Shown: positions 36,183 to 59,431, numbered from the stretch's first letter. The stretch is DNA of 64,000 nt from an uncultured Actinomycetes bacterium (GCA_963705545.1 CAVPJX010000001.1:1093246-1157245), one strand, 5' to 3'. The notes: a model not told the origin generated them from the sequence alone. Program-made: numbers and translations.

Positions 36183-37826
<1,644 letters not shown>

Positions 37827-38415: not shown

Positions 38416-39216
38416 TCAGTCTCTCGGCTCGAAACTGATGCGTCCCCGCTTCTTCGCGAGGAGCCAGCGCGGGTTGGCCGCGTTCAGCCGGAGGCTCAGG
38501 AGGCGGCCCCGGATGGTCTCGCCCAGGTCGCCGCGGCCGTGCTGGTCGCGGACCATGCGACTCTCGCGTTCCATGGCCTCCGCATCGAGGGAGATCTGTG
38601 CCGGGTGGAGACGGAATCGACCTAGGGTAGCCCGCATGATCCTGGGGTGCTGGAGTCGGAGCGCGCGCGCGTACCAATCGTAGTCCCCGCAGTTCCGGTA
38701 CGCGAGATCGAACGTCCCGACGAGGTCGACGAAGGACCGGCGGGCCCACACGGTCTGCTGAGGGATGCACGACCAGCCGAGCCCCAGGTACGAAGGGAGC
38801 GAGAGGTGAACGGGCGTCATCCGACCGAGGACGTCGCCGTGCTCATCGATGTACTCCACCCGACCGCAGAGCCACCCGAGGCCCGGGTCGCGGGCGAACG
38901 CCGACGCGATCCGCGAGAGCGCCTCGGGCGCGATCTCATCGTCGGCGTTGATGTACCCGACGATCGACCCTCGAACGAGCGACATCCCTCGGTTGATCGC
39001 GTCGTACATCCCTTGGTCTTCCGTGGAAGTGACGACCCTGGTCGGATAATCGGAGGCGATCTCTGTCGTCCGGTCCGTGGACCCCCCGTCGACCAATACG
39101 TGGTCGATGCGGATCGTTCCGTCTTGCTGGTCCCAGATCGAGCGAAGCGTCGACGCAAGGAACTCCTCGCCGTTGAGGGTCGGCGTCACTACCCCAACCG
39201 TCACCGGCTCAGACAT
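38416..39216 (-). CDS. family 2 glycosyltransferase
   Basis: VVTPTLNGEEFL, DGGSTD and DDE motifs of GT-A fold GT2 enzymes. ATG is the complement of 39214-39216. Confidence 0.8.
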   Translation of the reverse strand: MSEPVTVGVVTPTLNGEEFLASTLRSIWDQQDGTIRIDHVLVDGGSTDRTTEIASDYPTRVVTSTEDQGMYDAINRGMSLVRGSIVGYINADDEIAPEALSRIASAFARDPGLGWLCGRVEYIDEHGDVLGRMTPVHLSLPSYLGLGWSCIPQQTVWARRSFVDLVGTFDLAYRNCGDYDWYARALRLQHPRIMRATLGRFRLHPAQISLDAEAMERESRMVRDQHGRGDLGETIRGRLLSLRLNAANPRWLLAKKRGRISFEPRD

Positions 39217-39317
39217 CGTGAGTCCTCTCCACGTTGGACTTCCTCCGCCGCAAGGCACTGCGGGAACGAGACGTCATGTATCGTAACGTCCGCGTCCGAA
39301 CCTGACCGGATGAGTCG

Positions 39318-40262
39318 ATGACCCAACCGATCTTCTTGCTCTCACTGCCGCGTTCGGGGTCCACCCTCGTGCAACGGGTCCTCGGGATGCATCCCGACGT
39401 GGCGACGGCGCCCGAGCCCTGGCTCCTGCTTCCCCAGGTGTACGCACTCCGCGAGCGCGGTGCGGCGGCGGAGTACGCCCACGTCTCGGCCGCTCGGGCG
39501 ATCACCGCCTTCGCGGACGGTCTCCCGAACGGGCTCGACGACTACCTCTCCGAGATCCGAGGATTCGCGTTGAACCTCTATGGCCTCGCGGGAGGCGGGA
39601 CCGCCTACTTCCTAGACAAGACCCCGCGCTACTACTTCATCGTGGATGACCTTTACCGGCTCTTCCCTGAGGCTCGTTTCGTATTCCTCTGGAGGAACCC
39701 ACTGAGCGTCGTCGCATCGATCGTGGAGACCTGGGCGAAGGGGCGGTGGGCGCTGGACCGATGGACCGTGGATCTCCACGAGGGCGTCGAGCGTCTCGTG
39801 GAGGCGTCCGCTGAGGCTCGGCCCGGCACCAGCGCGACCCGGTTCGAGGATCTGATCGGGACCCCGGAGGTGAGCTGGCCGCGACTCTTCGGAGAGCTTG
39901 GTCTGGACTTCCAACCCGACATCCTGCAGCGCGTCGGCGACCGGAGGCTGACCGGCAGGATGGGCGATCCAACGGGCCAACATCGATACGAGCTGATCGA
40001 CCGCGAGCCGCTCCAGAAGTGGCGAGCGACGATCTCGACGCCCGTGCGGAAGCGGTGGATGAGGAGCTACCTGCGCTGGATCGGTCGCGCACGACTCGCC
40101 ACCATGGGGTACGAACTCGACGAACTGGAACGGGACCTCGAGACGTCTCGCACCGATCTCCGAAGCGTGGCTTCAGATGCCATCTTCGGAGTGGGCAGTC
40201 GGGCCAACGGATTCGCACGAGATCGCGCCGCACGGTTCGCGTGGCACCGCCCTCCCAGGTGA
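39318..40262 (+). CDS. sulfotransferase family protein (ST-A)
   Basis: 5'-PSB motif LSLPRSGSTLV and 3'-PB motif LWRNPLSVVAS (R.P....S). Confidence 0.75.
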   Translation: MTQPIFLLSLPRSGSTLVQRVLGMHPDVATAPEPWLLLPQVYALRERGAAAEYAHVSAARAITAFADGLPNGLDDYLSEIRGFALNLYGLAGGGTAYFLDKTPRYYFIVDDLYRLFPEARFVFLWRNPLSVVASIVETWAKGRWALDRWTVDLHEGVERLVEASAEARPGTSATRFEDLIGTPEVSWPRLFGELGLDFQPDILQRVGDRRLTGRMGDPTGQHRYELIDREPLQKWRATISTPVRKRWMRSYLRWIGRARLATMGYELDELERDLETSRTDLRSVASDAIFGVGSRANGFARDRAARFAWHRPPR

Positions 40263-40302
40263 CGGCTGCCGGACGAGCTCCTTGAGCAGGATCGACCGGG
40301 CA

Positions 40303-41097
40303 TCAACGATCCGATCTTCGCGTCAGCTCCTCGTACAGCTCGCCCGCTTCGAAGCGAAGGCGTCGTAGTCGATCGACCTCGTATCGGGTGCGAAGCTCGG
40401 CCTTGGCCCCCTCCCGCTCCGCGGTCGGCTTGGCGACCCATCGCACATCTCCCGTGCCTCCGAACATCGCTCTGTCCAGCTCGCCGATCCGCTGGAACAC
40501 GCGATCGACGTTCTCGGGCGTGTGCTCGAACTCGGCGAACCGCGTCCCGAACCTCTGGTTGACGCGACGGATCACACCGCTGAAGTCAGACGTGACGTCT
40601 TCGAACGTGCACACCGAGAGGTGCTCCCGCCAGGGCAGGATCCGACGATGGAAGCGGATCCAGGCGTGCAAGGGGGGCGAAGGAGGGATCCCCCGGAGGA
40701 TCATCTGAGAAAGCACGACGGCTGAGGGCTCCCGCACGATCACCAGAACCGGCCGACGAAGACGGACCGCGCGGATGACCTGCGCGGCGGAATGAGTGTG
40801 ATGAACCACTCGGACGGGCGACGGCTGAGCGAGTTGGAAGGCGGCGACTGCGAACGTGTTACCTGATCGCCCCATGCCCTCGATCACGAGTTCGGTCGAG
40901 GGATCGACCATCCACATCTCGTCGTGTCGATGACGGATCCAGATGAGAGGCGCGTAGACGGATGGATACGCGTTCAGGAGATACCTGACCGAATACGGAA
41001 CGCCGCGGATCCACTCGCGTAGGGGTTCAGACGAAGTCGGGGGCATCTGAACCTCAGGATATGCGGTCGAGATACAAGCGGTCGAGCTTGCGTTCAT
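40303..41097 (-). CDS. sulfotransferase-like protein (ST-B, paralog of 43864..44715)
   Basis: GMGRSGNTFAVAAFQLAQ P-loop-like 5'-PSB and VIVREPSAVVLS 3'-PB-like motifs. Start possibly at the internal Met (41046). Confidence 0.6.
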   Translation of the reverse strand: MNASSTACISTAYPEVQMPPTSSEPLREWIRGVPYSVRYLLNAYPSVYAPLIWIRHRHDEMWMVDPSTELVIEGMGRSGNTFAVAAFQLAQPSPVRVVHHTHSAAQVIRAVRLRRPVLVIVREPSAVVLSQMILRGIPPSPPLHAWIRFHRRILPWREHLSVCTFEDVTSDFSGVIRRVNQRFGTRFAEFEHTPENVDRVFQRIGELDRAMFGGTGDVRWVAKPTAEREGAKAELRTRYEVDRLRRLRFEAGELYEELTRRSDR

Positions 41098-41282
41098 CCG
41101 TTCACGGCCCCAGTCCAGCGTCGCTCACGGCCGATCCGCGACGCCATCGGGCGAGCCTTCGCAGAGAGGCTCGGGGGCGATGCGTGCGATCGGTCTAGGC
41201 CGTATCGACGGATCGTCCCGAGGTTGGTTCAACTATCCTTGGTCGGACGCCCGGAGGACTCGATGACGAGGATTGCGCCGGC

Positions 41283-42723
41283 TTGAACCCAGCGGATGGA
41301 CATCGCGCCAACGAGCCCGCACCCCAGCTTCGCGCGGCGAGCGATGCTGAAGGCGCGTTGGAATCCATCCGGAGACGCCTCATCCGCGGCTCCGGATGGG
41401 TCTTGCTCGCGCGAGGCATCGGGATACCCCTCGGGGTCCTGATCAACGCGCTCCTAGCCCGCATGCTCACGAAGACGGAGTTCGGTGCCTACCTCACGTC
41501 CTTCACGTTGGTGATCATCGGCAGCGTGGTTGCGCAGCTCGGGCTGGATCGAGCCATCGTGCGCCTGGTTTCCGAGTCCCTCGGCGATCTCGCAACCAGG
41601 TCGCGCTCGTCAGACGATCCATCGGTCGTTCATGATCGGGGCGGCATCCTCGGCGACGGTGGCGATCGGGCTGATGCTCGTAGGCCCATACTTCGCGCGG
41701 ACCGTTCTCGATTCCACCCTGGTGGCGGCTGTGATGCCGCTTACGGCTGGCTGGTTGGCGGCATACTCGATCCAATCCCTCGTCGTGGAGTCGTTCCGAG
41801 GACTCCAGGACTTCCGTAGCGCGAACATGTACGACACGATCCTCACGGATGTGGCCCTGGCAACGGCCTTCGGGGTCATGTGGGTCTTCGGGCCGCGCCA
41901 AGCCACGCTCAACACGATCATCCTGATCATCTGTGCGATCACCGCGATCATCGCAACCATCGCAGGCATGCGCTTGCGTAAGCAGATCAGGATCATCCAC
42001 GGATCCGGACAGCTCCTGAGCGGCGAGATCTTCGCCATCGCGTGGCCGTCGCTCATCACGAACATCGCGAGCTACTTGCTGTCGAGCGGAACGGATCTGC
42101 TGATCCTTGGCGCCTTCCGACAACAGTCGCAGGTCGCCGTGTACGGGGCCGCGACCCGCCTGGTCATCCTCGTCGCTACCCCGCTCTGGATCCTCCGCGG
42201 GGTGTTGCCCCCGATGATCTCGGAGCTGTACGCACAGGGACACAAGCGCGAGCTCGAGCGAACGCTCCGTGCCGGGGCAACGATGGCGGGGCTCCCGTCC
42301 TTCGCTATCCTCGTGGTGTTCCTGCTCTTCGGTGGACCGGTGATGGGCCTAGCCTACGGAGCGAACTACGAGTCCGGAGCCACGGTCCTCGCGGTGCTGG
42401 CGGTGGGGAGGATGGTCGCCGTCTGGGCTGGGGCGAGCGGCGTCACGCTGCTGATGACGGGCCATCAGAAGGCGATGATGACCATCACCGTCTGCACGGG
42501 CATCGCGTCCCTGTGCGGAGGCATCCTCGTCGCTCCTCGTTTCGGATCTCTCGGGATCGCCACCGTCACCGCCACCGTCGCCGTGGTGCAGAACCTCCTC
42601 CAGATCGCGGTGGTCCGACGGAGGGTCGGCGTTTGGTCACAGATGCAGTTCTCCCCTCGGATGCTGCACCGGTTCCTCCTCGGCAGGAGGACTCAACGTG
42701 ATGTGGATGCGTCCAACGGGTAG
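41283..42723 (+). pseudogene. Wzx-type polysaccharide flippase (MOP superfamily), disrupted by a frame change near 41600-41610
   Basis: The N-terminal ~105 aa (IRRRLIRGSGWVLLARGIGIPLGVLINALLARML...LGDLATRSR) are in the frame of ORF 41283. The remaining ~375 aa (QTIHRSFMIGAASSATVAIGLMLVGPYF..., 10+ TM) are in the frame of ORF 41530. Confidence 0.7.
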
Positions 42724-43763
42724 CCGAACCGACGCATGAGGGGCCAGGCGGTCGCCGTTACGCCTCGAAGCTGGCCCCGGCTCAGTTTGCGCCTCCACTC
42801 ATCGTCGACCTGGAATCGGATCTCTCCCGTCGCCGACCGCATCCGGTTCCCTGCGATCAGGTGATCCTCTCGAAAGCGGAGCTCTCCGGACGGACCGATA
42901 GCGACATGCGAATCTTGTATGTCGATCCCGGCGAACCTCGCGACCCGACGACATTCGACCCAGGGGTCCTGGACGAAGGATTCGTACCGAAGCACTTCGG
43001 TCGGCACGCCTCGACGAGCGAGGAAGCCGAAGGACGAGTTGATCCAAGTCCACCGCAATCCGGTCTTGGAAGGGCGACGACGTACCCGATAGTCGCTGCC
43101 CTGTCTCTTGACGACCTTGAGGTTGGAATAGGCGACGCCTCGAGGGTCTCGCACGAGATGGACCACGCGGGTATCGATCGTCGGATCCAGGCTCATGGCG
43201 AACACGTGGACGGGGACCTTCATGGAGTCGACGATGACGGCGCCGCCGGCGACATCGGAGATCGCGAGATAGAGACGTGTCATCAGGTGTCGATACGCGT
43301 CGAGCTTTCGCCGAAAACTCGAGGAGAGGGAGGGGTACGTGATCAGCGGGAGTGCGAAGGGCTGCGGGAACGGAAGGTCCTTCAAGACGAGCGAGTTCCG
43401 GAGCGCGGTCGCCGCCTCGGCGTCGAATCCGGCCCACCCTCCGAAGGCGCGATCACCGACGCTCGACCAGAACGGACAATCTCGAACCGAGGATCCACAC
43501 CCGCAGGCACGCCCGTCGATCAGCGCCTTGTCCCAGAGATGGCCGATCTCCCCGATCGCGCAGAAACCGGGTATCCCTCCGATGATCCGAGAGAAGACGG
43601 TCGCCCCGTTCTGCCCGGTCCCCGCCACCAACAAGACACGAACGCTCCCGACCCCCACCGATCCCCTTCGTTCCGTACATGACCCGGAGTCTGAGCAACC
43701 ACGGGTTGTATCGAAGTCTACTGTTATCCTCCGACGGTGAGAGGAGACGGACGCTTGGATCAA
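42693..43763 (-). CDS. sulfotransferase family protein with Cys-rich insertion (ST-C)
   Basis: LLVAGTGQNGATVFS 5'-PSB-like and HLVRDPRGVAYSN 3'-PB motifs. Insertion GRACGCGSSVRDCPFW. The N-terminal ~35 aa of the ORF are probably not translated. Confidence 0.65.
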   Translation of the reverse strand: MIQASVSSHRRRITVDFDTTRGCSDSGSCTERRGSVGVGSVRVLLVAGTGQNGATVFSRIIGGIPGFCAIGEIGHLWDKALIDGRACGCGSSVRDCPFWSSVGDRAFGGWAGFDAEAATALRNSLVLKDLPFPQPFALPLITYPSLSSSFRRKLDAYRHLMTRLYLAISDVAGGAVIVDSMKVPVHVFAMSLDPTIDTRVVHLVRDPRGVAYSNLKVVKRQGSDYRVRRRPSKTGLRWTWINSSFGFLARRGVPTEVLRYESFVQDPWVECRRVARFAGIDIQDSHVAIGPSGELRFREDHLIAGNRMRSATGEIRFQVDDEWRRKLSRGQLRGVTATAWPLMRRFGYPLDASTSR

Positions 43764-43863
43764 CCGCCGTTGCTCCCACGAACACGTTCTCTCGAGCGAC
43801 CGTCGGCGAAGTGGGAGAGAGGGCGGACTCCATCTCGAACGGTGGCAGGATGAAGCCCCGGAG

Positions 43864-44715
43864 TTGACGCTGACTCCTCGATCCGTCGGTCGGACCGTCG
43901 AGGACCACAGCCTGGGAGCGAGGCTTCAGGCTGCGCGCTGGGTGTTACGGAACCGCATCGCCGAGCACCCGCGCCTCTATCTACCGGTCGCTGGTCGCAG
44001 GTATCCGGACGCGGTTCTCACCGACGAGACCGACCTGGTGATCGACGGTTTCACCCGCTCGGCTGTGACCTTCACATCGATCGCTTTCCAGCTGGCGCAG
44101 AGCACGCGGGTGCGTGTCGCGTTCACCCTCCATTCGGTTGGTCACATCCTCGCCGCGGCTGAGCGTGGCGTTCCAGCGCTCGTCACGATCCGGGACCCGG
44201 ACCAAGTCGCCCTCTCCGCGGTCATCCGGGAGCCCTTCCTCTCCATCGGCGACGTCATGGCAGCCTATTCGCGCTTCTACGGCAGACTCTGGCCCGTTCG
44301 ACGATCCCTCGCGGTCGTCAGTTTCGACCAGGTCGTTACCGATCTCGGATCCGTGATCAGACAGCTCAACGCCCAGTTCAGCACCTCCTTCGACGAGTTC
44401 GAACACACGGAACAGAACGTGCGTCTGTGTTACGGCATCATCGACGATCGATCCAAGCGGGAACCGTGGCTGCGTGCGATCGGTTGGTTCCAAGGGGGCA
44501 AGATCACGTACGAGGCGTATCTCCAGGCGGTGGAATCCAGGAGATCAGCCGCGGGGCCGGACCGACAGGTCCCGGAACGGAGCGTCCCTCGACCCTCGCG
44601 CCAACGGGAGGCCTTCAAGGACAGGATCCGAGAAGCGCTCGGGGATCCTCGGATCATGGGCGTTCGCACCAGGGCGCTGCTGACGTATCGGTCATTCCTT
44701 CAAGACGAGCGGTAA
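43864..44715 (+). CDS. sulfotransferase-like protein (ST-D, paralog of 40303..41097)
   Basis: LVIDGFTRSAVTFTSIAFQLAQ and LVTIRDPDQVALSAV (RDP....S) motifs. Blocks alignable with the ST-B product. Confidence 0.6.
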   Translation: MTLTPRSVGRTVEDHSLGARLQAARWVLRNRIAEHPRLYLPVAGRRYPDAVLTDETDLVIDGFTRSAVTFTSIAFQLAQSTRVRVAFTLHSVGHILAAAERGVPALVTIRDPDQVALSAVIREPFLSIGDVMAAYSRFYGRLWPVRRSLAVVSFDQVVTDLGSVIRQLNAQFSTSFDEFEHTEQNVRLCYGIIDDRSKREPWLRAIGWFQGGKITYEAYLQAVESRRSAAGPDRQVPERSVPRPSRQREAFKDRIREALGDPRIMGVRTRALLTYRSFLQDER

Positions 44716-44787
44716 TCCTGGGTGCGATCGTCGCGATCCGCCGGAGCTAAGGAGTCCCGCGTCGTCGCGCGCGATCCCCGATCAGCT

Positions 44788-45759
44788 TCAGAACGGCCAG
44801 ATCTCGAGCCCGTGGATCGCGTTCCTCAGGTCCATCGAGAGGTTGACGGTCGCGATCACTTCGGGGGGGTCGAAGCGGTACAGCGAGACCGTCGCCGGTG
44901 AGGATCCGGCCACGAAGGTATCGCCATCGCCAACCACCGCCAGCCCGCGGCCGAACGCCTGCCGAGCCATGTCCCGCGTGACGTCGGAGTGCCGCAGATC
45001 CTCCCTCGCGTATCGCTTGATCGGCCAGGATCGCAGAAGCCGACCTCGACGATCAACGTACGCGACCCGGTCGGTGGCGGTGTGATTCATGAGGGCGCCC
45101 GCTCTGAACGGCCGTGCGTTGTGCGTCCCGTAGGGGACGTGTGCGTAGCGGGTCAACCGGTCCTCGCCGATCCTCCATAACGTCCCGGCGTTCACTCCGC
45201 AGCAGAACAACCCCGAAGCTTCTGCCACCACGCTGTTGATATGGATCGTGTCTCCGGCCGCAGGGCCGTCATCCGCCTCGGGATCGAACGAGACGAACGA
45301 AGGTCGGGGCCTCACCCCGAGCCGGCGCCGACCCTTCCAGGCGGAGCCGTATCGCAGCACGTAGCCACGTGTGAACCGCTCTGCCAAGAGATCGTATTCC
45401 AGCACGCTGTCGAAGCCGGTTGAGGTCACGAACAGGCGATCGCCCGCGACGCAGATCTCGTGACAATGACGAAGGTATCGATTGCCGAATGAACCGAGCG
45501 GCTCCAATTGGCGATCGAACACGAAGATCTCGTCGCTAGCCGCAAGGAAGACTCGCTCCCGATGGAACGCGATCCCGCGGAGACCGCGGTCCCCACCACG
45601 GCCCTCCCAGTCGATCGACGCTGCGTTCCAGTCGATGCGTTGATCCACCGACCCGGTCGCCATATCCACGAGGTAGACACCGCCGTGACTCTGACCTTGA
45701 TCGGCGGACCGAACGACCGAGCTCACGATCACCTTGGGTGGCCTCTTACTCGACGCCAT
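44788..45759 (-). CDS. conserved hypothetical protein (possible beta-propeller-like fold)
   Basis: 339-aa ORF without stops in the glycan locus. Start taken at the internal Met (MASSKRPPK); the alternative start is 45807. Confidence 0.45.
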   Translation of the reverse strand: MASSKRPPKVIVSSVVRSADQGQSHGGVYLVDMATGSVDQRIDWNAASIDWEGRGGDRGLRGIAFHRERVFLAASDEIFVFDRQLEPLGSFGNRYLRHCHEICVAGDRLFVTSTGFDSVLEYDLLAERFTRGYVLRYGSAWKGRRRLGVRPRPSFVSFDPEADDGPAAGDTIHINSVVAEASGLFCCGVNAGTLWRIGEDRLTRYAHVPYGTHNARPFRAGALMNHTATDRVAYVDRRGRLLRSWPIKRYAREDLRHSDVTRDMARQAFGRGLAVVGDGDTFVAGSSPATVSLYRFDPPEVIATVNLSMDLRNAIHGLEIWPF

Positions 45760-45828
45760 CGGTTGCTCAGAAGGTGCCGTATTCAACGGTCCCCTCGGCC
45801 CCGTCATGCAACGACCCGGCAGCGCGCA

Positions 45829-47127
45829 TCACCATCGGACGCTCCCGCCAGCGAGCGCTGGAGGGGTTGTCGAGACGCCTCGGCCAGGCTCCTGAGTCTC
45901 CCGATCGTCCGCATCCTCCCCTTCCTCGCCGGACGTCCTGCCATCTCGCACGACCAGCATGGCCAAGCCGTACGTCATGCCGATCACGGCGGAACGCGAC
46001 ATCCCCTCCAAGACCGGATTGAAGGCAGCCGCCACGAAGAAACAGTTGAAGCCCACCAACAGGAGGCGCACGAGCCCGGCACGTGTGTCTCTCGCCTGGG
46101 CCACGAAGTTCCTGTGTGCCCGTGTCAGGGTGATGTTCAACGTCAGGATGAAGGCGAGCAAGAGACCGAGCCCGACCAGTCCGCCCTCTCTCAGGAAGAG
46201 GACGTAATCGTTGTGGAACGGAAGCTGGATGACCGTTCCATTCCGCGATCTGATCGTCTGCGCCACCGTCCCGCCGGTGAACGCATTGCCGAAGAAGGGG
46301 GACGTCTTCCAATCCTCGATCCCGGAACTCCATATCGCCACCCGAACACTGCTCGCGTTCGACTTGCCGACCGCGACGAAGTAGTCCCCGGTGACCTCTT
46401 CAACGCGCGACACATGAGCGAGCGCGAAGAGGGTCGCCAGCAAGGCGATCGACGCGAAGACGTAGGGCCGTGCTCGCGAAGCCCGGGGTTTCGTGACGCT
46501 GAACGTAACGATGGTCGCGATCACACAGAGGATCGATGTAGCCGATGGATAGGCGGCGAAGTTCGCTGCCTCCAGCCCGCAGAGAGCCACAAGCAACCAC
46601 CGTCGTCTCGCCACGATCGCCCCGGCGATCCCGAACATGACGAAGGTGAACTGCGCATTCCGGAATTGCTTGTACTTGGCAAGATCCGGAAGGACGCCGG
46701 AGTTGACGAGCGCCGCAACGAGGAGGTACAAGGCCCCGACCAGGGTGATCGCCAGGAGGATCCTCTTGCACTCGTCATCCGTCGGCGACCGAAGGACGAG
46801 CAGGTAGAGGATCGCGAGCGACAACGGCAGGAACACGACCCTCGCAGAGGTACCCGATCCCTGGATCATCGACGCGTACAGGGACCCGGCGAGCCCCATG
46901 AGCAAGATCGCGAGGAAGATCTTGTCGGTAACGGTCGTCGTGCGCACGTATGGGGTTCTAAGGCGGGTCCAGTCGTAGAGAACGACGATCACGGGCACCG
47001 CGAGGATCAGGTACTTCTTCGAGCCGCCACGGTCGAAGAAGTTGAATATGTCCATGGCCGTAACGAACATGATGAAGACGGTGACCCTCGCGTACCGGTA
47101 GCCTTCTGTCGATGGGCCTCGACCCAT
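45829..47127 (-). CDS. O-antigen ligase/polymerase (Wzy_C) family membrane protein
   Basis: About 10 TM helices with a large periplasmic loop carrying AIWSSGIEDW...NAFTGG...HNDYVLFL, typical of the O-antigen ligase family. Start chosen downstream of the convergently overlapping ORF head. Confidence 0.7.
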   Translation of the reverse strand: MGRGPSTEGYRYARVTVFIMFVTAMDIFNFFDRGGSKKYLILAVPVIVVLYDWTRLRTPYVRTTTVTDKIFLAILLMGLAGSLYASMIQGSGTSARVVFLPLSLAILYLLVLRSPTDDECKRILLAITLVGALYLLVAALVNSGVLPDLAKYKQFRNAQFTFVMFGIAGAIVARRRWLLVALCGLEAANFAAYPSATSILCVIATIVTFSVTKPRASRARPYVFASIALLATLFALAHVSRVEEVTGDYFVAVGKSNASSVRVAIWSSGIEDWKTSPFFGNAFTGGTVAQTIRSRNGTVIQLPFHNDYVLFLREGGLVGLGLLLAFILTLNITLTRAHRNFVAQARDTRAGLVRLLLVGFNCFFVAAAFNPVLEGMSRSAVIGMTYGLAMLVVRDGRTSGEEGEDADDRETQEPGRGVSTTPPALAGGSVRW

Positions 47128-47224
47128 GGCCCTCGCGCTCACAGGATCACCCGCCCGGACAAGGCTGTTCGCGCAGCCCGAGCGCGACGTCCCGTGGGCA
47201 GCTCGAACGCATACCGTGACGCCG

Positions 47225-48397
47225 TCACCGTGACCCCGCCAAGTCGAGTCGATCACCCATCGCCATCCGATACTCGGATTCCAGGGCGGCCAGCCCTCGC
47301 TCAGGAGTGAATCGATCACGCCACGCCCTCAAGGCTTCGTTCCCCATCCGTTCGCTCTCGGCGTCGTCGAGCAATCGTCCCACGACTTCCGCCCACGCCG
47401 CCGGGTCGTCGACGGTCGCGAGGTAGCCGGTCTTCCCGGATTCCACGGCCTCTGGCAGTGCGCCGACATCACTCGCGATCACCGGAACCCCGGCGGCATA
47501 CGCCTCGGTGATCACCCGGGGGGCTGCTTCGTACCACCGCGAGGGGATGAGAACCGCGCGCGCCGAGGCCAGGAGATCTGGCACTTCCTCGGCAGCCACC
47601 GCTCCGAGGAACGACACGCCGGGCGGGGCCTCAGACCGAAGCTTCGGCGCTTCCGGTCCATCTCCTGCGATCAAGAGCCTCGCCTTCGGGCTCGACCTCC
47701 AAGCCGATATCAGCGTGTCGACACCCTTCTCGTGAGCGATCCTTCCGAGGAAGAGGAAGTAGTCACCGGCTCCTCGCCTGATCCGCGCCGGGGGTGTGAA
47801 GTTCGGTTTGACTCCGATCGCCCCTGGCGCGATGCCCGCATCGATGTGTCGATCTCGAACGAAGTTGCTCACCGCTAGGTACCTGGAGACGGAGTCGAAC
47901 GTTCCGATCCCTCGATGGAGGGTGACGGACGCAGCCACCGCGGCGCTCCCTGCGACCGACCCTCGGTAACAGCGGTGAACGACACCCCTCCATGGCACGT
48001 GGCCGAGACAGTCCTCGCATGGGCGATCTCCGCGGAGGAGATTGGCTGGGAGGCACATCAGCCGGTAGTTGTGGAGTGTGATGACCGTCGCGGCGCCCCC
48101 GCGTCTCCCAGCCCGCAAGACCGCCGGCGACAATGCCGGGAAGAGGTTGTGTGCGTGAACGATGTCCACGCTCTCTTTGGCCACGAAATCCCGTACGACG
48201 CGGTAGGCGTGTGAAGACCAGATCGTCGAGATCCCGGCCCGCACCTGCTCCGAGAACGTCGATGCGACGGGCTCCGGCGTGAATCGCCACACATCGTGGC
48301 CGGCCCGTCGCAGCAACGCTGCTTCATCCTCCAGCACGCGGTTCTCACCCGAGGTCGGCCCGGAGAGGTATCGCGAGTGGACGAGGAGGATGCGCAT
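47225..48397 (-). CDS. family 4 (GT-B) glycosyltransferase
   Basis: MRILLVHSRY N-terminus and the C-terminal EAAPRVITEAYAAGVPVIASDVGALPE (EX7E-like) motif. Confidence 0.8.
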   Translation of the reverse strand: MRILLVHSRYLSGPTSGENRVLEDEAALLRRAGHDVWRFTPEPVASTFSEQVRAGISTIWSSHAYRVVRDFVAKESVDIVHAHNLFPALSPAVLRAGRRGGAATVITLHNYRLMCLPANLLRGDRPCEDCLGHVPWRGVVHRCYRGSVAGSAAVAASVTLHRGIGTFDSVSRYLAVSNFVRDRHIDAGIAPGAIGVKPNFTPPARIRRGAGDYFLFLGRIAHEKGVDTLISAWRSSPKARLLIAGDGPEAPKLRSEAPPGVSFLGAVAAEEVPDLLASARAVLIPSRWYEAAPRVITEAYAAGVPVIASDVGALPEAVESGKTGYLATVDDPAAWAEVVGRLLDDAESERMGNEALRAWRDRFTPERGLAALESEYRMAMGDRLDLAGSR

Positions 48398-49647: not shown

Positions 49648-49692
49648 GCGCAGCCCGAGGCCAACCGAGGTGCGGTCGAGCGGACAACCCCC

Positions 49693-51207
49693 TCACGGAA
49701 TCGACTTCACGCTCTCGCAGTCCACCGCGACGTCGTTGCCGAGTCCCCCGATGCAAACATCGAAGCCTGGGCCGCCGATCAGGAGGTCGTTGCCGTCTCC
49801 GCTCGTCAGCCTGTCGTCGCCGTCCCCGCCCTCCAAGCGGTCGTCGTCGGGCCCACCGAGGAGCACGTCGGCGCCACCGCGTCCGTAGAGTCCGTCCGCG
49901 CCGACGGCACCCTTCAGCGTGTCGTCTCCCTCCCCTCCGTCGATCACGTCATTTCCCGCAGACCCGACGATCAGGTCGAGCCCTACCTCTCCCATCAGCG
50001 TGTCGTCGCCACCTCCACCGGTCACCGAATCGTCGTCCGAACCCGCGCAGATAACGTCGTGTCCACCGCGACCTTCTACGTCGTCATTGCCCGCGAGGGT
50101 GGAGATGACATCCGCCTGTGCGGTTCCAAGGATGGCGTCGCCTCCCGCCGTTCCGATGATCGTGGCAGGCAAGCCCGCACAGGTCTCCGGCAGCACGGCG
50201 TCCACCTGGTGGTTCGAGACGACCACCTCGATCGGATCGTGGAACGTGTCGACCACGCCGGGGACAGGAGAGACGGGCGTCTGGGTCCCGGTAAAGGGGT
50301 CGACGCGAACGATGCCGCCCCCGACATCTCCGTACGTACCGTCACCCGCGAAACCGTCTTGGCTTGCCACGAGGATCTGACCTTGTCCGTCCACCGACAC
50401 ACCGGAGGTGGCGTGGAGGAAGCCATCTGAGGTGAGCTTCGATTGGCCCCCGGTGGTCCGATCGACGCGGATCACGCCGCCACTCGAATTGGTGTAGGCG
50501 TTCTCGTCTCCGACGATGACGTTCCCCGAGGGCTCGACCGCGATGCCGAGCGGGGTGAGGAAGTCGCCCTGCGGGGAAACCACGGCCTGAGCTCCGGTCA
50601 CGGGGTCGATCCCGATCACCCGACCCCCACCCCCGCCCGCCGTGTGTTCATCGGCGACCAGGATGTATCCGCTCGGGTCGAGCGTGACGCCCCTCGGGTT
50701 CCGCAGGAAGCCATCGTGGGCGAGGACGGTCTGCAACCCGGTCACGGGATCGACGCGGAAGACCGCTCCGTTCCCCTGGGGAGGGATCGCCGCCGGATCC
50801 ACGACGATGAGGCTCCCATCGGCCTCGATAGCGACGTCGGAGGGGGCCTTGAACATTCCTCCCTCGGATATGATGGTCTGCAACCCCGTCGCGAGATCGA
50901 GGCGGATCAGCGCACCCGGGCCTCCTCGCGCATCTTGATCAGCGATGATGAGTCGCCCGCCGGCATCCATCGCAGCTCCGAAGGGGTCCTTGAGGTACCC
51001 ATCCGCGGCGATCAGGGTCTGCGTCCCCGAAACCGGGTCGACCTTGAGGACCTTCCCGTTACCCGAGATGTCACGGTCGACGACGATGAGATCCCCGATG
51101 TTGACGACAGGCTCCGCCGACGCTACGGTCGGCGCGAGGAGCGTTGCGGAGAAGATGATCCCGCAGACCGCGATCCGCAGGATGTTGAGCCGAGTAGGGA
51201 AGGTCAT
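49693..51207 (-). CDS. secreted NHL-repeat beta-propeller protein with C-terminal RTX-type Ca-binding beta-roll repeats
   Basis: Signal peptide. Six repeats of VDPVTG.QT...DG.L..P.G.. and about eight nonapeptides GGxGxDxL/V ([31 protein letters not shown] and others). Confidence 0.7.
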
Positions 51208-51391: not shown

Positions 51392-52160
51392 TCACCGGCG
51401 CCCCGATCCGGCGGGAGCCCGGCCCCGCTTGAAATGGAGACGATCGGACACGACCCCGGCGACGAACCGAGGATTGCCCACGAGGTATCGACCCGCAGAG
51501 CCGGCGAGGCTCCGATGCGAGTCGGAAGAGCCACTCGAGGCCGGCGTCCTGCATCCAGCGGGGGGCCCTCTGGCTCGTCCCCGCCAGGAAATCGAACGCC
51601 GCTCCCACGCACAGGATCACCGGCGCCGCGTCGAGCCCGCCAGGCGCCCGGCCATGACGTCCTGCTTCGGCGCCCCCAGGCCGATCCACAGCACCTGCGC
51701 CGCTGAGTCCCGCATCCGCTGAGCGCTCGCCTCGACTTCATCGTCGGAGAGCGTTCGGAACGGGGGCGACTCCGCTCCGACGATCTGGATGCCTGGGTAT
51801 GACCCGTCCAGCGTCGCTCGAGCCGCGCGAGGGTCTCCGGACGCCCTCCGTAGAGGTAGTGCCGCAGGCTCGGTCGACCCCCCAGTCGGAGAGGAGCTCC
51901 GTGCCATCGGCACCGGCCAGCCGCTCCGTCTTCGACCCGAACATCCGGGCGGCCCATGCGACCGGCATCCCGTCCGGGACGTTCAGCGAACCCACGTTCA
52001 AGACCTCTCGATAGGCGGGGTCGGTCCGCGCTTCGACGGTGGGATGGGCAGCGCAGAAGTGAACGACGTGGCTGTGACCGCACGGAGGAACCCAGAGATC
52101 GCGTCGATGAACGTCCCGGGCGTGACCGGATCGATCCGGACACCGTTCACTTTCGGCCAC
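51392..52160 (-). pseudogene. WecB/TagA/CpsF-family glycosyltransferase, broken into at least three reading frames
   Basis: LNVPDGMPVAWAARMFG, then [12 protein letters not shown], then [21 protein letters not shown]...[13 protein letters not shown], then RYLVGNPRF, each in a different frame of the same strand. Confidence 0.65.
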
Positions 52161-53312: not shown

Positions 53313-53404
53313 GAGATCGCTCCTTCTCCCGCTTCGCCGCTCCAGGCCGCTAACCCCGCTGCGCCGCCCCGGGAGAACTCCCGCAGGCGGCGCGACGACA
53401 GCGG

Positions 53405-55060
53405 CTACGGGGTGACCTTGAACTTCATCCCGGTGCTCTTCGCCGAACCGCCCGGCGTCGTGATCTTGATGATCCCCTTGGAGAAGCCGGCCGGGACGAT
53501 CGCCGTGATCTGCACGTCGGAGTCCACGGTGAAGCTCGTCGCCGGAACGTCCCGAACGTGACGACCGGTGCTCCCGTGAAGACCGGTTCCCTGGATCACG
53601 ACCGGGGTCCCCATCGGACCGGACATCGGCGAGAACGTCGTGATCGTCGGAACCGGCGGCGGCGGTGGCCCCTCCGACGAGCACGAAGCGGGCGAACCCC
53701 GATTGCGGCAGCCCGTCGAGATCGACGTGAACCACCCCCGACGAAGAGGTGTCGCTCGTGATCTGCATCGCCCAGGCGCCGATGTAGTTCTCGGCGCCGA
53801 CGCCCGACCCGGGTGCGCTCTGGCCGCGGAAGGGGTACATCTGCGGGAACCAGTCGCAGTAGAAGGCGCCGGTCGCCGGGTTGACGCTGACGAGACCGTG
53901 CGCCCACACGTTGCTCCCGCACGAGGTGATCCGGTAGTCGAGGACGGCGGTGCCGAAGTGGCCGCCGACGAACAGGCGCGTGCCGTCCGGCGACAGGGCC
54001 AACGCTTCGCGTTCCCCGGCGATCCTTGTGACCAGATCCGCATCGCGCAGCCCCCGCCGACGGAGCACTCGTCCGGAGCCGCTGGTCGTCATGGTCTCGT
54101 TGAACGCGTGAACCCGTTCGGCGTCCTGCCCCACGCGACGAAGACGCGACTGGCCGTGGACAGGATCGTCCCAGGTGATGTTCGGGACCGTCGTACGGGT
54201 TGCTCGGACGACTCGCCGGGGATCGTCGCCCACGGGACCCTCCAGCGAGGAGCGAGCCGTCCGTCAGCGTGACTCGAGCGATCGTGTTGCGCGGCGTGCC
54301 GTTCACGTAGAAGTAGTTCCCGCCGACGAACAGGCTGTTGCCGTCGTGAGCCAGCGAGCCATGCATGGACGTTCCCGGTCCCGCCGTTCGTGACGGGACC
54401 ACAGCTCGTGCCGGGCGGGAACTGGCTGGGACACGGGTTCGTCCCTGCGGTCGCCGATGGGACCCAGGCGTTGCTGAGGCTCCCGTCGACCGCGGAGATC
54501 GCCGCGAGGTGCTCACGGGTCGAGCCGTTGACCCGCGTGAAGTTGCCGCCCAGGTAGACGAGATCGACCGTCGCGATGGATCACGTTGCACCGTGCCGTT
54601 GGGCGAGATCGTCACGGACGGGGTCGACCTGGGTTCCGGTCGCGGCGTCGACGGCGGCGAAGTATCTGCGCGCTGCGCCGTTCACGGCATCGAACTTCCC
54701 GCCGAGTAGAGCGTCTGACCGTCCGATCGAAACGGCGAGCGCTTGATCCTCGTCGGCTCCGCTGCTGTTGGTAACAGCCGCGGTGAAGCGCGGGATGTAG
54801 GCCCCGGTATCGTGTCGAAGGCGGCGAGGTTCTGCACTGGAACCGTCTGCCCGGGGGCCTTCGCCAGAATCGAACGTCCCACCCACGTAGAGCACGTTCC
54901 CGGATCGAGCCAACGCGTAGGTCTTGCCGTTCGTGCTTCCACGTGCGGGTCGGGCGAGTTCGACAGCGCGGAAGCGGGCTCCGCAACGACGACGAGCCCA
55001 GCCACCAGGGCGAGCAGGCGCCGCGATCCGCACGGACCGGGGAAGCTTCATCTCCATCAC
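53405..55060 (-). pseudogene. secreted beta-propeller repeat protein with C-terminal IPT/TIG domain, multiply frame-disrupted
   Basis: The signal peptide, repeat blocks (GKTYALARSGNVLYVGGTF; AHDGNSLFVGGNYFYV) and a clean C-terminal IPT/TIG domain (SGPMGTPVVIQGTGLHG...ITTPGGSAKSTGMKFKVTP) are spread over four frames. Confidence 0.5.
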
Positions 55061-55297: not shown

Positions 55298-56330
55298 ATG
55301 AAGATCAAGATCCTCTGTACGCTCGGCCCGGCCTCGCTCGAGACCGAGGTCCTGCGCGGGATGGACGAGCGCGGTGTCGATCTCTTCCGCATCAACCTGT
55401 CGCATACGCCCGTTGGACGCCGTCGATCCGACGATCGCTGAGGGTCCGTCCGTGCATCGTCGACGCCCATCTCCCTGGACACCGAGGGCGCGCAGGTCCG
55501 CTGCGGGTCGATGCCGGATGGCGTCGCCCTCGAGGAGGGCCAACAGGTCCTCCTGACGCGCGAGGCGATCGTGGGCGATCGTGAGAGGTTCACCCTTTGG
55601 CCGAGCGTCGTCTTCGAGACACTAGCTCCAGGGACGTTGATCGGAGTGGACTTCGACGGGGCCATGCTCGAGATCACGCGGCGTGGGGGGATCCGAGGCG
55701 TGGGCTTCAGTGGTCCACGGAGGTCGGGTCCGCTCGAACAAGGCGGTGACCGTCGACCCGCCTCCTTCGCTGCCTCGCTCTCCGAGAAGGACGAGTCGGC
55801 GATCGCGATCGGTGCACGTCTCGGCATCACCCACTACGCACTCTCGTTCGCGAGCGTGCGCGCGGACGTCGATCGCATCCGGAGCTTGGCACCGGCCGGG
55901 GCACACATCATGGCGAAGCTCGAGAGCCGGGCAGGCGTGCGCCACATGGACGGCGTGATCGAGGCGGCCGACTCGATCGTGATCATCGACCGCGGGGACC
56001 TCTCACATGACCTCCCCTTCGAATCGGTCCCGTACTACCAGAAGGCGATCGTGAGACGCGCGAACCGGTGGAACCGACCGGTCTACGTCGCGACGAACCT
56101 CCTCGAATAGCTTGGTGACGAGCCAGACGCCGACGATCGCCGAGGCCAACGACATCGCGAATACACTGCTCGATGGGGTCCACGGGCTCGTGCTTGCCGC
56201 GGAGACGGCCATCGGACTCGATCCCCTGGGCTCGATCGATCTCGTCCGACGAGCGATCCGCGCCTTCGAGCAGGCGAGCGAAGCGGGATTGTTGCTCGAC
56301 GATCGCACTCGACTCGAGGTTGCCACGTAG
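55298..56330 (+). pseudogene. pyruvate kinase-like (barrel domain only) gene with in-frame TGA (55439-55441), TAG (56108-56110) and a +1 shift
   Basis: MKIKILCTLGPAS..FRINLSH; ISLDTEGAQVR; AKLESRAGVRHMDGVIEAADSIVIIDRGDL; TPTIAEANDIANTLLDGVHGLVLAAETAIG. No allosteric C-terminal domain. Confidence 0.6.
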
Positions 56331-56542: not shown

Positions 56543-58330
56543 GTGCAGCCCCTGCATTCCGCCAAGCAGAATGAGGAGTACGTCGATCTTCGTGGCTACC
56601 TCGCGATCCTGCGCCGGCGAGCGCCGGTCATCTTGGGGATCGCGGCTATCTGCTTGGGACTCGCGTTCGCCTACACGAGGCTCCAGACCCCCATCTACAC
56701 CTCGACGGCTCGGGTCCTCCTCAAGCCCCCTCCAGGGAACACGGTCGAGAACCTGAGCAACGTCATCAGCGTCGAAACCGAGGCACAGGTCGTCAAGTCC
56801 GAGGTAGTCGCGGTTGCCGCGAGCGAGACGCTCGACACGACCCTCGAACCGCTCCAACTCCTCAAGCGCGTGTCGGTGCAGACGACGCCGGGGAGCTTCA
56901 TCATGGCGATCTCGTTTTCGTCACCGGACCCAGAGCGCGCCGCGCTCGGCGCGAATGCGTTCGCAGAGGCATACATCAGCTTCCGTCGCAAAGAGTACGA
57001 AGACCAGATCGCGAGTCAGGAAAGATCGATCGAAGCTCAGATGCATGATCTGCAACGCGAGCAGACGGAGCAGAACCAGATCCTCGAGGAGAATCCCCCG
57101 GGTACGATTGCCTATCGCACCGCCCAGGACGCGCTCAGCCAACTCAGCATCAGGCTAGCGGTCCTCGCCTCGGCCCTTAGCGAGCTCCCCCAGGTCGTCG
57201 ACACCGGCCAGGTGATCTTGTCCGCCTCGGTGCCAGTTTCGCCGTCCAGCCCGAATGTCCAGCTGAACCTCGCGATCGGCCTTCTTCTCGGCGTGCTCGC
57301 CGGGGTGGGCGCTGCCCTCGTGGCAGAGCGGATGGACGATCGCGTTCACGACTCATCGGAGCTCTACCGATTCACGGACGCTCCGGTGCTCGCGTACGTG
57401 CCCCACACCGGGGAGAGGAAGAAGCCCAGACGGAGCACCCAGCTCGTGGTTCGCCTGCAGCCTCATAGTCCTGCGGCCGAGGCCTACAGGACGGTCCGCA
57501 CAGGCATCTTGAGCATGGCCCAGCGTCGAGGCCTCGTCGTGATCGCCTTCGTCAGTCCTGTCCAGGGTGAAGGTAAGTCCATGACCTGCGCGAACATCGC
57601 CGCGGCGCTGGGGCAGACCGGGAGGCGTGTCCTTGCGATCTCGGTCGACATCCGTCGCCCAACCCTTCACGAGTTCCTCGGTGTACCGAACGAGCTGGGC
57701 CTCACCGAGGTCCTGGCCGGCGAGGTGGCGTTCGGGGAGGCGGTCCAGCGATCCGAGATGGGAGGGATCTGGCTCCTCAGCGGCGGCCAACAATCCTCCG
57801 AGCCAGCCGAGCTCCTCCAATCGCCCGCGATGGGGCAACTCTTGACATCGGTTCGAGATAGCTTCGACTTCGTGATCCTCGACTGTCCTCCGATACTCGG
57901 GCTCGCCGACTCGCTCTCGATCCTCCCACTCGCCGATGCGACGCTACTTGTCGTGGCGGCGGGAAGGACACAAGGCGGTGCTCTCGTGGAGGCGAACGAG
58001 CGGCTCGCCCGGGTCGGCGTCGCGATCGAAGGCGCGATCGTGAACGACGTCCGCATCCGTCGGGGTCATCCCGGACACCGGGCGTACGGCTACTACCGCT
58101 CGGTGGCGGAGTACTTGGACGTCGGCGAACCGCGTCAGGGCGTGGATAGGGACGACCAAGCGGTGAGGACCCCCCGCCGAGTGGTGTCGAAAATGGTCGT
58201 CGGCGCGACATCTGATGCCAACGGGAGCGAAGCCTCGGGGCAGAAGACCGAAGTCACCGAGCCACTCGGGAACGGGATCCATTCAGGCTCCGGCGTGTCC
58301 GAACCGGAGACGGAAGCGACGCCCCGCTAG
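56543..58330 (+). CDS. polysaccharide co-polymerase (Wzz) fused to BY-kinase (tyrosine autokinase)
   Basis: Two TM segments flanking a coiled-coil periplasmic region. Cytoplasmic ATPase with Walker A SPVQGEGKS and Walker B/DxD. 595 aa. Confidence 0.85.
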   Translation: MQPLHSAKQNEEYVDLRGYLAILRRRAPVILGIAAICLGLAFAYTRLQTPIYTSTARVLLKPPPGNTVENLSNVISVETEAQVVKSEVVAVAASETLDTTLEPLQLLKRVSVQTTPGSFIMAISFSSPDPERAALGANAFAEAYISFRRKEYEDQIASQERSIEAQMHDLQREQTEQNQILEENPPGTIAYRTAQDALSQLSIRLAVLASALSELPQVVDTGQVILSASVPVSPSSPNVQLNLAIGLLLGVLAGVGAALVAERMDDRVHDSSELYRFTDAPVLAYVPHTGERKKPRRSTQLVVRLQPHSPAAEAYRTVRTGILSMAQRRGLVVIAFVSPVQGEGKSMTCANIAAALGQTGRRVLAISVDIRRPTLHEFLGVPNELGLTEVLAGEVAFGEAVQRSEMGGIWLLSGGQQSSEPAELLQSPAMGQLLTSVRDSFDFVILDCPPILGLADSLSILPLADATLLVVAAGRTQGGALVEANERLARVGVAIEGAIVNDVRIRRGHPGHRAYGYYRSVAEYLDVGEPRQGVDRDDQAVRTPRRVVSKMVVGATSDANGSEASGQKTEVTEPLGNGIHSGSGVSEPETEATPR

Positions 58331-58486
58331 AACGGTTTCCGCATCCGAGGACGCTGACACCACCTCGCCCGAGGGCGAACCCGGAACGGGCCCTCTGGGG
58401 GGTCATGGCTCCGCCGGCCGCCGCGACCGCACCGGATCGGGAGCGCCCGCCGGCCCACACGCCTCCGGGCCGGCGGCCCCCTCCCG

Positions 58487-59431
58487 TCAGATCCCCTTCA
58501 GGTAGGCGACGGTCTCCGCGAGGCCGTCCTCGAGATGGGTCCACGGCTTCCACGCGATCGCGCTCGCGGCGGCCGAGATGTCCAGGGCGATCCGGCGCAG
58601 CTCACCCGGCGGGAGCGGCCCGCGCTCGGGCTCCCGGTCGAACCCGATGATGTCGGCGAGCAGCCGATAGAGGTGGTTCACGCTCGTCTCTAGTCCCGTG
58701 CCCACGTTCACGAGCTTGCCCGAGCCGCGGTCGATCGCCTGCACGAACGCGTGGACCGTGTCGTCGATGAACACGTAGTCACGCGTCTGGTTCCCGTCCC
58801 CGAAGATCGTCGGCGTCTCCCCTGCGAGCATCTTGGCGGAGAAGATCGAGATCACCCCGGCCTCACCGTAGGGGTCCTGCCGAGGTCCGTACACGTTGCC
58901 GAGGGCGAGCGCGGTGTGTTCGAGGCCGCGGTAGCGCTGGTAGAAGTCGAGGTAGTCCACCGAGACCTTCTTGGAGATGCCGTAGGGCGAGGTGGGGCGG
59001 GAGCCCTGGGCGCTCGTCTCCTTCGCAGGAACGCGCTTCGGCTCCCCGTACAGCGTGCCCCCGCTCGCGGCGTAGATCACCTTGCGGACGCCGGTCTTGA
59101 CGGCGCACTCGAGGACGTTCAGCAACCCCATCACGTTGATCGAGGCGTCCCTCACCGGATCCTCGAGCGAGGGCCGCACGCCGGACTGCGCGGCGAGGTG
59201 GAACACGATCTCTGGCCGGTGGCGTTCGAACAACGGCAGGAGCCCCTCGGCGCGCACGTCCATGTTGAAGAACGTGAACTCCTTGCCGTAGCCGCGCGCC
59301 TCCGCGAGGTTCGCGATGCGGCCCGTCGCGAGGTCGTCCACGCTGACCACGCGGTAGCCCTCCGCCAGGAGGCGGTCGGCGAGATGCGAGGCGATGAACC
59401 CGGCGCCCCCGGTCACCAGGACGGTCGTCAC
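58487..59431 (-). CDS. NAD-dependent epimerase (UDP-glucose 4-epimerase GalE-like)
   Basis: VLVTGGAGFIASH, YGISK catalytic motif. GTG start (complement of 59429-59431) overlaps the tsaD stop (GTGA). Confidence 0.85.
   Translation of the reverse strand: MTTVLVTGGAGFIASHLADRLLAEGYRVVSVDDLATGRIANLAEARGYGKEFTFFNMDVRAEGLLPLFERHRPEIVFHLAAQSGVRPSLEDPVRDASINVMGLLNVLECAVKTGVRKVIYAASGGTLYGEPKRVPAKETSAQGSRPTSPYGISKKVSVDYLDFYQRYRGLEHTALALGNVYGPRQDPYGEAGVISIFSAKMLAGETPTIFGDGNQTRDYVFIDDTVHAFVQAIDRGSGKLVNVGTGLETSVNHLYRLLADIIGFDREPERGPLPPGELRRIALDISAAASAIAWKPWTHLEDGLAETVAYLKGI

Follow-up and report, generated by a model that had tools for sequence, protein, structure and literature searches.

The region at positions 38,416 to 59,431 of a 64,000-nucleotide stretch of DNA from an uncultured Actinomycetes bacterium (GCA_963705545.1, CAVPJX010000001.1:1093246-1157245; the whole stretch is called the window here) is probably one copy of a conserved Wzx/Wzy/Wzz glycan locus of uncultured Actinomycetota, which would place several sulfates on each lipid-linked repeat unit. 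The hallmark of the locus family is that it encodes more sulfotransferases (STs) than glycosyltransferases (GTs). The same gene set recurs in related loci with five to eight ST genes, which points to a multiply sulfated glycan as its natural product. Such a glycan had been proposed in an earlier, sequence-only reading of the window; gene set and recurrence support the proposal, although this copy is incomplete and sulfate in the product is a prediction from the genes.

Five sulfotransferase-like genes in four families

The sequence-only reading had picked out five open reading frames (ORFs) with both binding motifs for the sulfate donor 3'-phosphoadenosine 5'-phosphosulfate (PAPS). All five exist, all are sulfotransferase-like, and the 5'-phosphosulfate-binding (5'-PSB) and 3'-phosphate-binding (3'-PB) motifs lie where they had been placed. 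The ORFs themselves are also at the places given, but several of their starts had been set too far upstream, so that ST2 now spans 40303-41046 and ST3 starts near 43658. The five genes are given below, each with its 5'-PSB and then its 3'-PB.

39318-40262, plus strand: ST1, Sulfotransfer_3 or NoeE-like; PRSGSTL (39348-39368), WRNPLSVVAS (39690-39719)
40303-41046, minus strand: ST2, of a family with a predicted sulfotransferase fold; GRSGNTF (40852-40872), VREPSAVVLS (40708-40737), His85 invariant
42693-43658, minus strand: ST3, sulfotransferase with a Cys-rich insert; GQNGATV (43596-43616), VRDPRGVAYS (43125-43154)
43864-44715, plus strand: ST4, paralog of ST2; TRSAVTF (44053-44073), IRDPDQVALS (44188-44217)
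48760-49647, plus strand: ST5, Gal-3-O or heparan-sulfate-type sulfotransferase; GKTAGTT (48820-48840), LRDPVALTVS (49066-49095)

The GC content at third codon positions (GC3) of all five ORFs is of the coding type. The 5'-PSB is followed by the 3'-PB (R-x7-S) in the correct order in 5/5 proteins, and both are conserved across orthologs; measured against the [KR]-x-G-[ST]-T type, deviations of the 5'-PSB are seen in ST3 (Q-N-G-A-T, without the basic residue, its Q-N-G replacing the [KR]-[ST]-[GA] of the other four) and ST4 (R-S-A-V-T). By hydropathy, no hydrophobic segment is present in any of ST1 to ST5. The genes belong to four unrelated families (ST1, ST2/ST4, ST3 and ST5). Since significant pairwise similarity is confined to the ST2/ST4 pair (38% identity, E 3e-30), the five genes are not recent duplicates.

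Profile searches, in which the superfamily models considered were Pfam PF00685, PF13469, PF03567 and PF06990 at curated thresholds, were clear for ST1 and ST5 and marginal for ST3, while ST2 and ST4 matched no Pfam or NCBIfam model. None of the ORFs fell into a kinase family. ST1 scores 106.7 bits against Sulfotransfer_3 (cut-off 27), and it reaches 90.5 bits against the N-terminal half of the NCBIfam model of NoeE; with an equivalog cut-off of 500, this means that ST1 is not a NoeE ortholog. Its relatives in the PDB are the CurM sulfotransferase, olefin-synthase sulfotransferase domains and TPST1/2. ST5 scores 56 bits against Gal-3-O_sulfotr (cut-off 27) and matches a heparan sulfate 6-O-sulfotransferase (E 4e-6). 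Taken alone, ST3 is marginal, at 24.7 bits against PF00685 (Sulfotransfer_1, cut-off 22) and 26.8 against PF13469 (Sulfotransfer_3, cut-off 27), and two further matches are weak: to the ST1 family by hhalign (E 7e-4, 26% probability) and to an olefin synthase sulfotransferase domain in the PDB (E 0.039). It is assigned as an ST because of the precomputed Pfam annotation of its homologs: the family gave 1678 matches, PF13469 or PF00685 is annotated in most of the 120 that were listed, and the named members are called sulfotransferase. ST3 and its orthologs also share a Cys-rich insert, invariant among them (R-x-C-G-C-G ... C-P-F-W), that separates the 5'-PSB from the remainder of the fold and is possibly a metal site.

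In the case of ST2 and ST4, assignment as STs is by modelled fold and by motif only, not by profile. Searches of the PDB with phmmer and with the family profile gave no sequence match; hemagglutinin entries at E ~0.2-2 were rejected as chance. The predicted model of ST2 has the central parallel sheet and the strand-loop-helix of the 5'-PSB that characterize the sulfotransferase fold. Strand 53-57 runs into G-R60-S-G-N-T64 and then a helix, and the loop, G-x-G-R-S-G-N-T, differs from the Walker A motif GxxxxGK[ST]. In the 3'-PB, R105 ends strand 100-104 and S113 sits on the following helix. The invariant His85 comes after strand 80-82, and the catalytic base of sulfotransferases is usually found at the matching position.

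The ST2/ST4 family comprises 3316 cluster representatives at E<=1e-10 (50% identity clusters). Elsewhere, its domain is fused to Wzz/BY-kinase (bacterial tyrosine kinase), Wzy_C, GT4, a canonical Sulfotransfer_1/3 domain and PAP2; except for PAP2, these partners are glycan-assembly or sulfotransferase proteins. Some of the fusions could be gene-calling artefacts. The observation set for the family consists of the window genes and proteins P0352, P0396, P0431, P0461, P0448 and P0378.

Related loci and the proposed pathway

The GT2, GT4, Wzx, Wzy-like, Wzz/BY-kinase, epimerase and RTX/NHL genes named in the sequence-only reading are all real, as is the upstream adenosine 5'-phosphosulfate (APS) kinase discussed below. 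Together with one gene which that reading had overlooked, the beta-propeller, they are as follows.

38416-39216, minus strand: GT2 glycosyltransferase (PF00535, 78 bits), likely start at M15 of the ORF
~41283-42723, plus strand: Wzx-type flippase (Polysacc_synt), with a frameshift near 41585
44788-45732, minus strand: soluble beta-propeller protein of 314 amino acids (aa) with invariant His, Asp, Asn and Arg
45829-47127, minus strand: Wzy-like polymerase or ligase (Wzy_C), a polytopic membrane protein with 7 hydrophobic segments
47225-48412, minus strand: GT4 glycosyltransferase (PF13692, 113.5 bits; PF00534, 109.4 bits)
49693-51207, minus strand: secreted NHL beta-propeller protein with a signal peptide and C-terminal RTX calcium-binding repeats
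56543-58330, plus strand: Wzz domain fused to a BY-kinase-type P-loop ATPase, a co-polymerase (PF02706, 47.2 bits; PF13614, 48.6 bits)
58487-59539, minus strand: GalE-like NAD-dependent epimerase, intact (PF01370, 184 bits; GC3 0.91)

A search with the ST2 family, using one genome per species, returned 18 loci, all of them in metagenome-assembled genomes (MAGs), mostly of Actinomycetota, with some from Acidobacteriaceae and one from Pseudomonadota. In five of these loci (L003, L006, L012, L013 and L014) the ST2 homolog stands beside orthologs of ST1, ST3, ST5, Wzx, Wzy, the propeller and GT4, and GT2 is also present wherever the contig reaches; L001 holds a partial set. The orthologs in the related loci share 40-70% identity, and one block is arranged differently from the window. 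For instance, GT2 orthologs are 64-70% identical in L003, L006, L012, L014 and L019, GT4 orthologs show 54-63% identity, and an ortholog of the RTX/NHL protein adjoins the L003 locus. Two further loci, L019 and L020, were found through a propeller homolog and represent a single contig in nearly identical versions, each from its own dataset; they match a protein named by NCBI from the Actinomycetota MAG KatS3mg013. All genes of L019 are intact and, by content rather than strict order, they comprise GerE-type regulators, Bac_transf, WecG, epimerase, GT4, six sulfotransferase genes, Wzy, propeller, Wzx, GT2 and a pyruvate-kinase-like (PK-like) gene. Its Bac_transf gene means that a priming enzyme belongs to the system though it is absent from the window. 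L019 also has unannotated genes of 302 and 420 aa.

The number of sulfotransferase genes per related locus is 5-8 (L003, L006, L012, L013, L014 and L019/L020), with eight in 18 kb in L006. Two extra Pfam-positive sulfotransferase families, ST6 and ST7, are found in related loci and are absent from the window. The co-occurrence of STs with Wzx and Wzy, which the sequence-only reading had put forward for comparison, is thus observed in other Actinomycetota MAGs. ST2-family genes are also held by MAGs of Acidobacteriaceae and Sulfotelmatobacter (L004, L007, L009, L015 and L016), some of which have a weak ST1-like sulfotransferase ~1 kb upstream.

The beta-propeller gene at 44788-45732 is present in every related locus. 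Its product was modelled as a beta-propeller with a pLDDT of 88.4 and has >3460 homologs; among those listed, identity is 56-75% and none is annotated. In the numbering of this protein (P0211), the invariant His residues are H16, H91, H164, H204, H217 and H307. Membership of Arylsulfotran, the families of PAPS-independent aryl sulfotransferases, was looked for and no Pfam match was obtained for the protein or for 30 family members; the family profile likewise gave no sequence match in the PDB at E<=10.

From this gene set a pathway can be proposed, in which we infer the substrate, the sequence of events and that any product carries sulfate. A priming phosphoglycosyl transferase, as encoded in L019, would start a short repeat unit on polyprenyl-phosphate at the cytoplasmic face of the membrane, and the WecG-type, GT4 and GT2 transferases would lengthen it. 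The soluble ST1, ST2/ST4, ST3 and ST5 enzymes would then each esterify a different hydroxyl with sulfate from PAPS, itself presumably supplied through the nearby stand-alone APS kinase. Wzx would flip the sulfated unit over the membrane, the Wzy_C protein would polymerise or ligate it, and the Wzz/BY-kinase protein would control chain length. With three transferases and a primer set against five to eight STs, about one sulfate per sugar or more is predicted, and the product would be a polyanionic glycan. Sulfation of the repeat unit before flipping has been proposed for synechan (PMC8205485). The Wzx/Wzy locus in that case, which also contains STs, is a precedent in that it makes a chemically verified sulfated exopolysaccharide (EPS) (PMC8205485). 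For the locus family the pathway is plausible.

The candidate PAPS source and its neighbour lie upstream of the locus.

31345-32076, minus strand: stand-alone APS kinase (CysC), domain start ~31956 (PF01583, 202 bits)
31965-33470, minus strand: type I phosphodiesterase/nucleotide pyrophosphatase (PF01663, 131 bits)

In tblastn, the kinase is 43% identical to Escherichia coli CysC (E 3e-39). It stands 6.4 kb from the locus, in the native high-GC flank behind housekeeping genes. The role suggested for it in the sequence-only reading holds insofar as the gene is real and could supply PAPS, but it lies outside the island that contains the locus, and the window has no ATP sulfurylase. The kinase gene is directly downstream of the phosphodiesterase/pyrophosphatase gene, on the same strand and with a slight overlap, and the pair may be an operon joining PAPS synthesis with hydrolysis of nucleotides or of PAP(S) (PAPS or its desulfated form).

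State and setting of the window copy

Several points weigh against reading the region as a locus for a multiply sulfated glycan. The Wzx gene is lesioned, four further genes are disrupted, and no priming phosphoglycosyl transferase of the Bac_transf or WecA type was found in the window; one is present in L019, and the enzyme could be encoded elsewhere in the genome. The Wzx/Wzy/Wzz pathway put forward earlier is therefore supported as a locus type but incomplete as sequenced. The lack of an ATP sulfurylase in the window is another such point. The Wzy_C protein matches PF04932 at 30.0 bits, just below the cut-off of 31.7 (its L019 ortholog is flagged PF04932), and in NCBIfam it has a weak TfpM match. 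The Wzy_C family includes polymerases, WaaL ligases and PglL/TfpM-type O-oligosaccharyltransferases, and membership does not separate them. Among the STs, the basic residue of the 5'-PSB is replaced by Gln in ST3 and also in its orthologs, and hhalign gave a null result for ST2/ST4 against the ST1 family (probability 0.4%), with no profile-level link to sulfotransferases. Lastly, all the relatives found are uncultured organisms.

The flippase identity of Wzx is upheld, but its true extent is ~41283-42723, split by a frameshift: the frame changes after the N-terminal ~100 aa, and the two pieces, if joined, have at least 9 hydrophobic segments. Orthologs of 462-518 aa match the window first in one frame and then in a second, with the switch at ~41585. 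The upstream ORF matches PF01943 (35.7 bits) and the downstream ORF MatE (21.5 bits); the L019 ortholog matches PF01943/PF13440. The junction of this frameshift is outside any homopolymer. At 51.2-56.5 kb lie four consecutive, multiply disrupted genes that the sequence-only reading had overlooked, with long intact ORFs on both sides.

51395-52153, minus strand: WecG/TagA/CpsF-type (GT26) glycosyltransferase, disrupted by at least 4 frame changes; intact in L012 and L019
52295-53294, minus strand: NAD-dependent epimerase/dehydratase, disrupted by one frame change and an in-frame stop
53405-55060, minus strand: remnants of a secreted IPT/TIG-domain protein, spread over several frames
55298-56330, plus strand: pyruvate-kinase barrel-like gene, disrupted by an in-frame stop and several frame changes

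The intact set of L019 marks these four as genuine members of the locus family. The PK-like gene, for example, is a conserved member, and its ortholog in L019 (15182-16207) is intact and encodes 341 aa, barrel only. In total, at least 12 frame breaks or stops fall within the 5.3-kb block and one in Wzx, with none in ~12 kb of neighbouring locus genes. Homopolymer runs are about as dense within the damaged block as beyond it, and the junctions belong to more than one type, so a homopolymer test did not separate real lesions from errors.

The window copy may be inactive, unless the lesions are consensus errors. It is a serious possibility, if somewhat short of an even chance, that the region is a decaying remnant in which the lesions are real, the primer has been lost and the glycan is no longer made, with the intact ST genes either not yet hit or kept for another use. 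The frameshift in Wzx, the frame changes in the WecG-type gene, the frame change and stop in the epimerase and the several lesions of the PK-like gene all speak for decay, as does the fact that the window lacks a Bac_transf homolog. At one junction or more, the lesion is a single T inserted outside a homopolymer, which is atypical of long-read error. However, the lesions are extremely clustered, which uniform neutral decay of a dead pathway would not predict, and the broken genes are as ortholog-like as the intact ones (57-72% to L019 for the PK-like gene vs 38-64% for intact genes). One junction, moreover, adjoins a run of six or seven Gs, and L003, one of the related MAGs with MFD isolate names, also has a split GT4. 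We take the MFD-named MAGs to be long-read assemblies, the platform being stated in no record. Lesion clustering and ortholog similarity together fit a local consensus problem in a metagenome assembly; they also fit very recent decay.

Alternatively, the STs and the Wzy_C protein might decorate something other than a free Wzy-polymerised polysaccharide, such as a sulfated O-glycan on secreted proteins (for example the adjacent RTX/NHL or TIG proteins), a cell-wall-linked glycopolymer or a sulfoglycolipid, which we regard as improbable. The breadth of the Wzy_C family and the weak TfpM match would allow it. Both the window locus and its relatives have secreted repeat proteins (RTX/NHL, TIG, DUF1996, beta-helix) at their flanks, and the nearest solved relatives of ST1 include protein-tyrosine and polyketide sulfotransferases. 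Against this, a Wzz/BY-kinase co-polymerase, typical of polymerising systems, is present, other genomes encode fusions of ST2-family domains to Wzz/BY-kinase and Wzy_C, and ST5 is closest to carbohydrate sulfotransferases. It is more doubtful still that ST2 and ST4 are other P-loop-derived enzymes, for instance small-molecule or sugar kinases, leaving a locus with three STs rather than five: their lack of Pfam, NCBIfam and PDB sequence matches and the null comparison with the ST1 family would agree with this, but the loop is not a Walker A motif, the R-x7-S 3'-PB and the invariant His stand at canonical positions, and the fusion partners of the domain elsewhere include a canonical sulfotransferase domain as well as glycan-assembly proteins.

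The locus is an accessory island set among conserved core genes of a high-GC genome that, judged from synteny, GC content and relatives, is probably actinobacterial. Mean GC in the window is ~71% and drops to 64-67% over 38-58 kb, and GC3 in the island is 0.74-0.84 vs 0.90-0.97 in the flanks. The GalE-like epimerase may belong to the core genome rather than to the island, given its flank-like GC3 of 0.91. The genes that border the low-GC stretch are the following.

36183-37808: groEL, left border
37887-38195: groES, left border
59428-60522: tsaD, right border, together with a GNAT (rimI-like) gene and a tsaB-like gene

The rest of the window is made up of housekeeping genes, including tricarboxylic acid cycle, purine and folate genes, a UvrD-type helicase gene and guaA-like and guaB-like genes. 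A mobile-element origin of the island was considered and rejected: the window lacks tRNA genes, neither an integrase nor a transposase was seen among the scanned genes, border repeats not having been searched, and the related loci do not adjoin groEL or tsaD.

Over 38416-51207 the coding strand alternates at nearly every gene (GT2 minus, ST1 plus, ST2 minus, Wzx plus, ST3 minus, ST4 plus, three genes minus, ST5 plus, RTX minus), an arrangement partly kept in L003, L006 and L012. Polysaccharide loci are usually co-oriented operons, and alternating strands are unusual. DUF1996 proteins, often with TIG/Big domains, recur beside the related sulfotransferase-rich loci (L001 4959-7196; L003 47-5414 and 19258-20508). 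The native part of the window (21049-23414) also has a DUF1996 gene, at 22440-23414, with a PF04185 phosphoesterase gene just upstream.

Significance and comparison with known systems

Sulfated polysaccharides are treated as a hallmark of animals and algae and, in bacteria, mainly of cyanobacteria. Papers of 2021 and 2026 describe them as essentially restricted, among bacteria, to cyanobacteria (PMC8205485, PMC13390465). If the reading of the region as a multiply sulfated glycan locus is true, the trait would extend to abundant uncultured soil bacteria, with a charge density near that of glycosaminoglycans. The locus would also offer a compact panel of candidate regiospecific carbohydrate sulfotransferases for the enzymatic synthesis of sulfated glycans, and intact relatives such as L019 could serve as a template for heterologous expression. 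Two unannotated families, ST2/ST4 (~3300 clusters) and the beta-propeller (>3460 homologs), gain a functional context, and the former might warrant a sulfotransferase family model of its own. A bolder view, for which we would hold out rather little hope, is that widespread soil and hot-spring Actinomycetota make a heparin-like, hypersulfated surface glycan from a compact Wzx/Wzy locus with up to seven ST lineages, the propeller acting as a PAPS-independent sulfate shuttle like ASST (arylsulfate sulfotransferase) or Cpz4, or as some other new modifying activity.

The sequence-only reading had remarked on the unusual density of STs, and this is borne out against the described bacterial loci that were found, which have 1-3 sulfotransferases each. 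A full-text literature search joining sulfotransferase, Wzx, Actinobacteria and sulfated returned no matching paper. The choice of NodH and Stf0 as the classic single examples, made in the sequence-only reading, is out of date. The carbohydrate sulfotransferases NoeE and NodH of rhizobia and Stf0, Stf1 and Stf9 of mycobacteria each work alone, on lipo-oligosaccharides or trehalose, and outside Wzy loci. ST1 resembles NoeE, at 90 bits against the equivalog cut-off of 500.

The capsule region of Vibrio sp. KMM 8419 has 3 STs spread over 80 genes and 95 kb, exports its product through an ABC transporter, and yields a capsular polysaccharide whose structure shows sulfate (PMC11641403). Its STs adjoin PAPS synthesis genes and, as in the window, they lie inside a non-cyanobacterial polysaccharide locus. 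The Pontiella cluster has 1 sulfotransferase (PMC7356697). In neither case do sulfotransferases dominate a compact locus of the Wzy type.

The wps-1 locus of Actinoplanes missouriensis (AEM 2026) has 2 STs and a proposed sulfated EPS, the sulfate being unverified (PMC13390465). Like the window locus, it is an actinomycete Wzx/Wzy/Wzz locus, and of its two STs, one is of the Gal/GlcNAc type and the other of the heparan-sulfate type, which resembles ST5. Compared by its published description, it differs in having GH26, a methyltransferase and a kinase-like protein. Its host, unlike that of the window locus, is cultured and genetically tractable and has a sporangium phenotype.

The closest precedent in logic is the synechan locus, xss, of Synechocystis sp. 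PCC 6803 (Maeda et al. 2021), with 2 STs, 8 GTs, ~2 sulfates per 8 sugars and a chemically verified product (PMC8205485). In both, STs of distinct subfamilies lie inside a Wzx/Wzy/PCP (polysaccharide co-polymerase) exopolysaccharide locus, and sulfation is presumed to take place on the lipid-linked repeat unit. Among the Pfam-scanned locus genes, no two-component or STAND regulator such as those of the XssS/XssR/XssQ module was seen, and the regulators in L019 are instead of the GerE/sigma-70 region 4 type. Unlike xss, the window locus has 5 STs with 2 intact GTs and 1 broken one, and its relatives 5-8 STs with 3 GTs and a priming enzyme; the host is a high-GC monoderm rather than a cyanobacterium; two of the STs are in a family without a profile model; and a conserved beta-propeller and a PK-like gene are present. 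The locus, known here only through its genes, thus follows the same logic as xss, and what it adds is an inverted ratio of STs to GTs, another phylum and two unannotated protein families.

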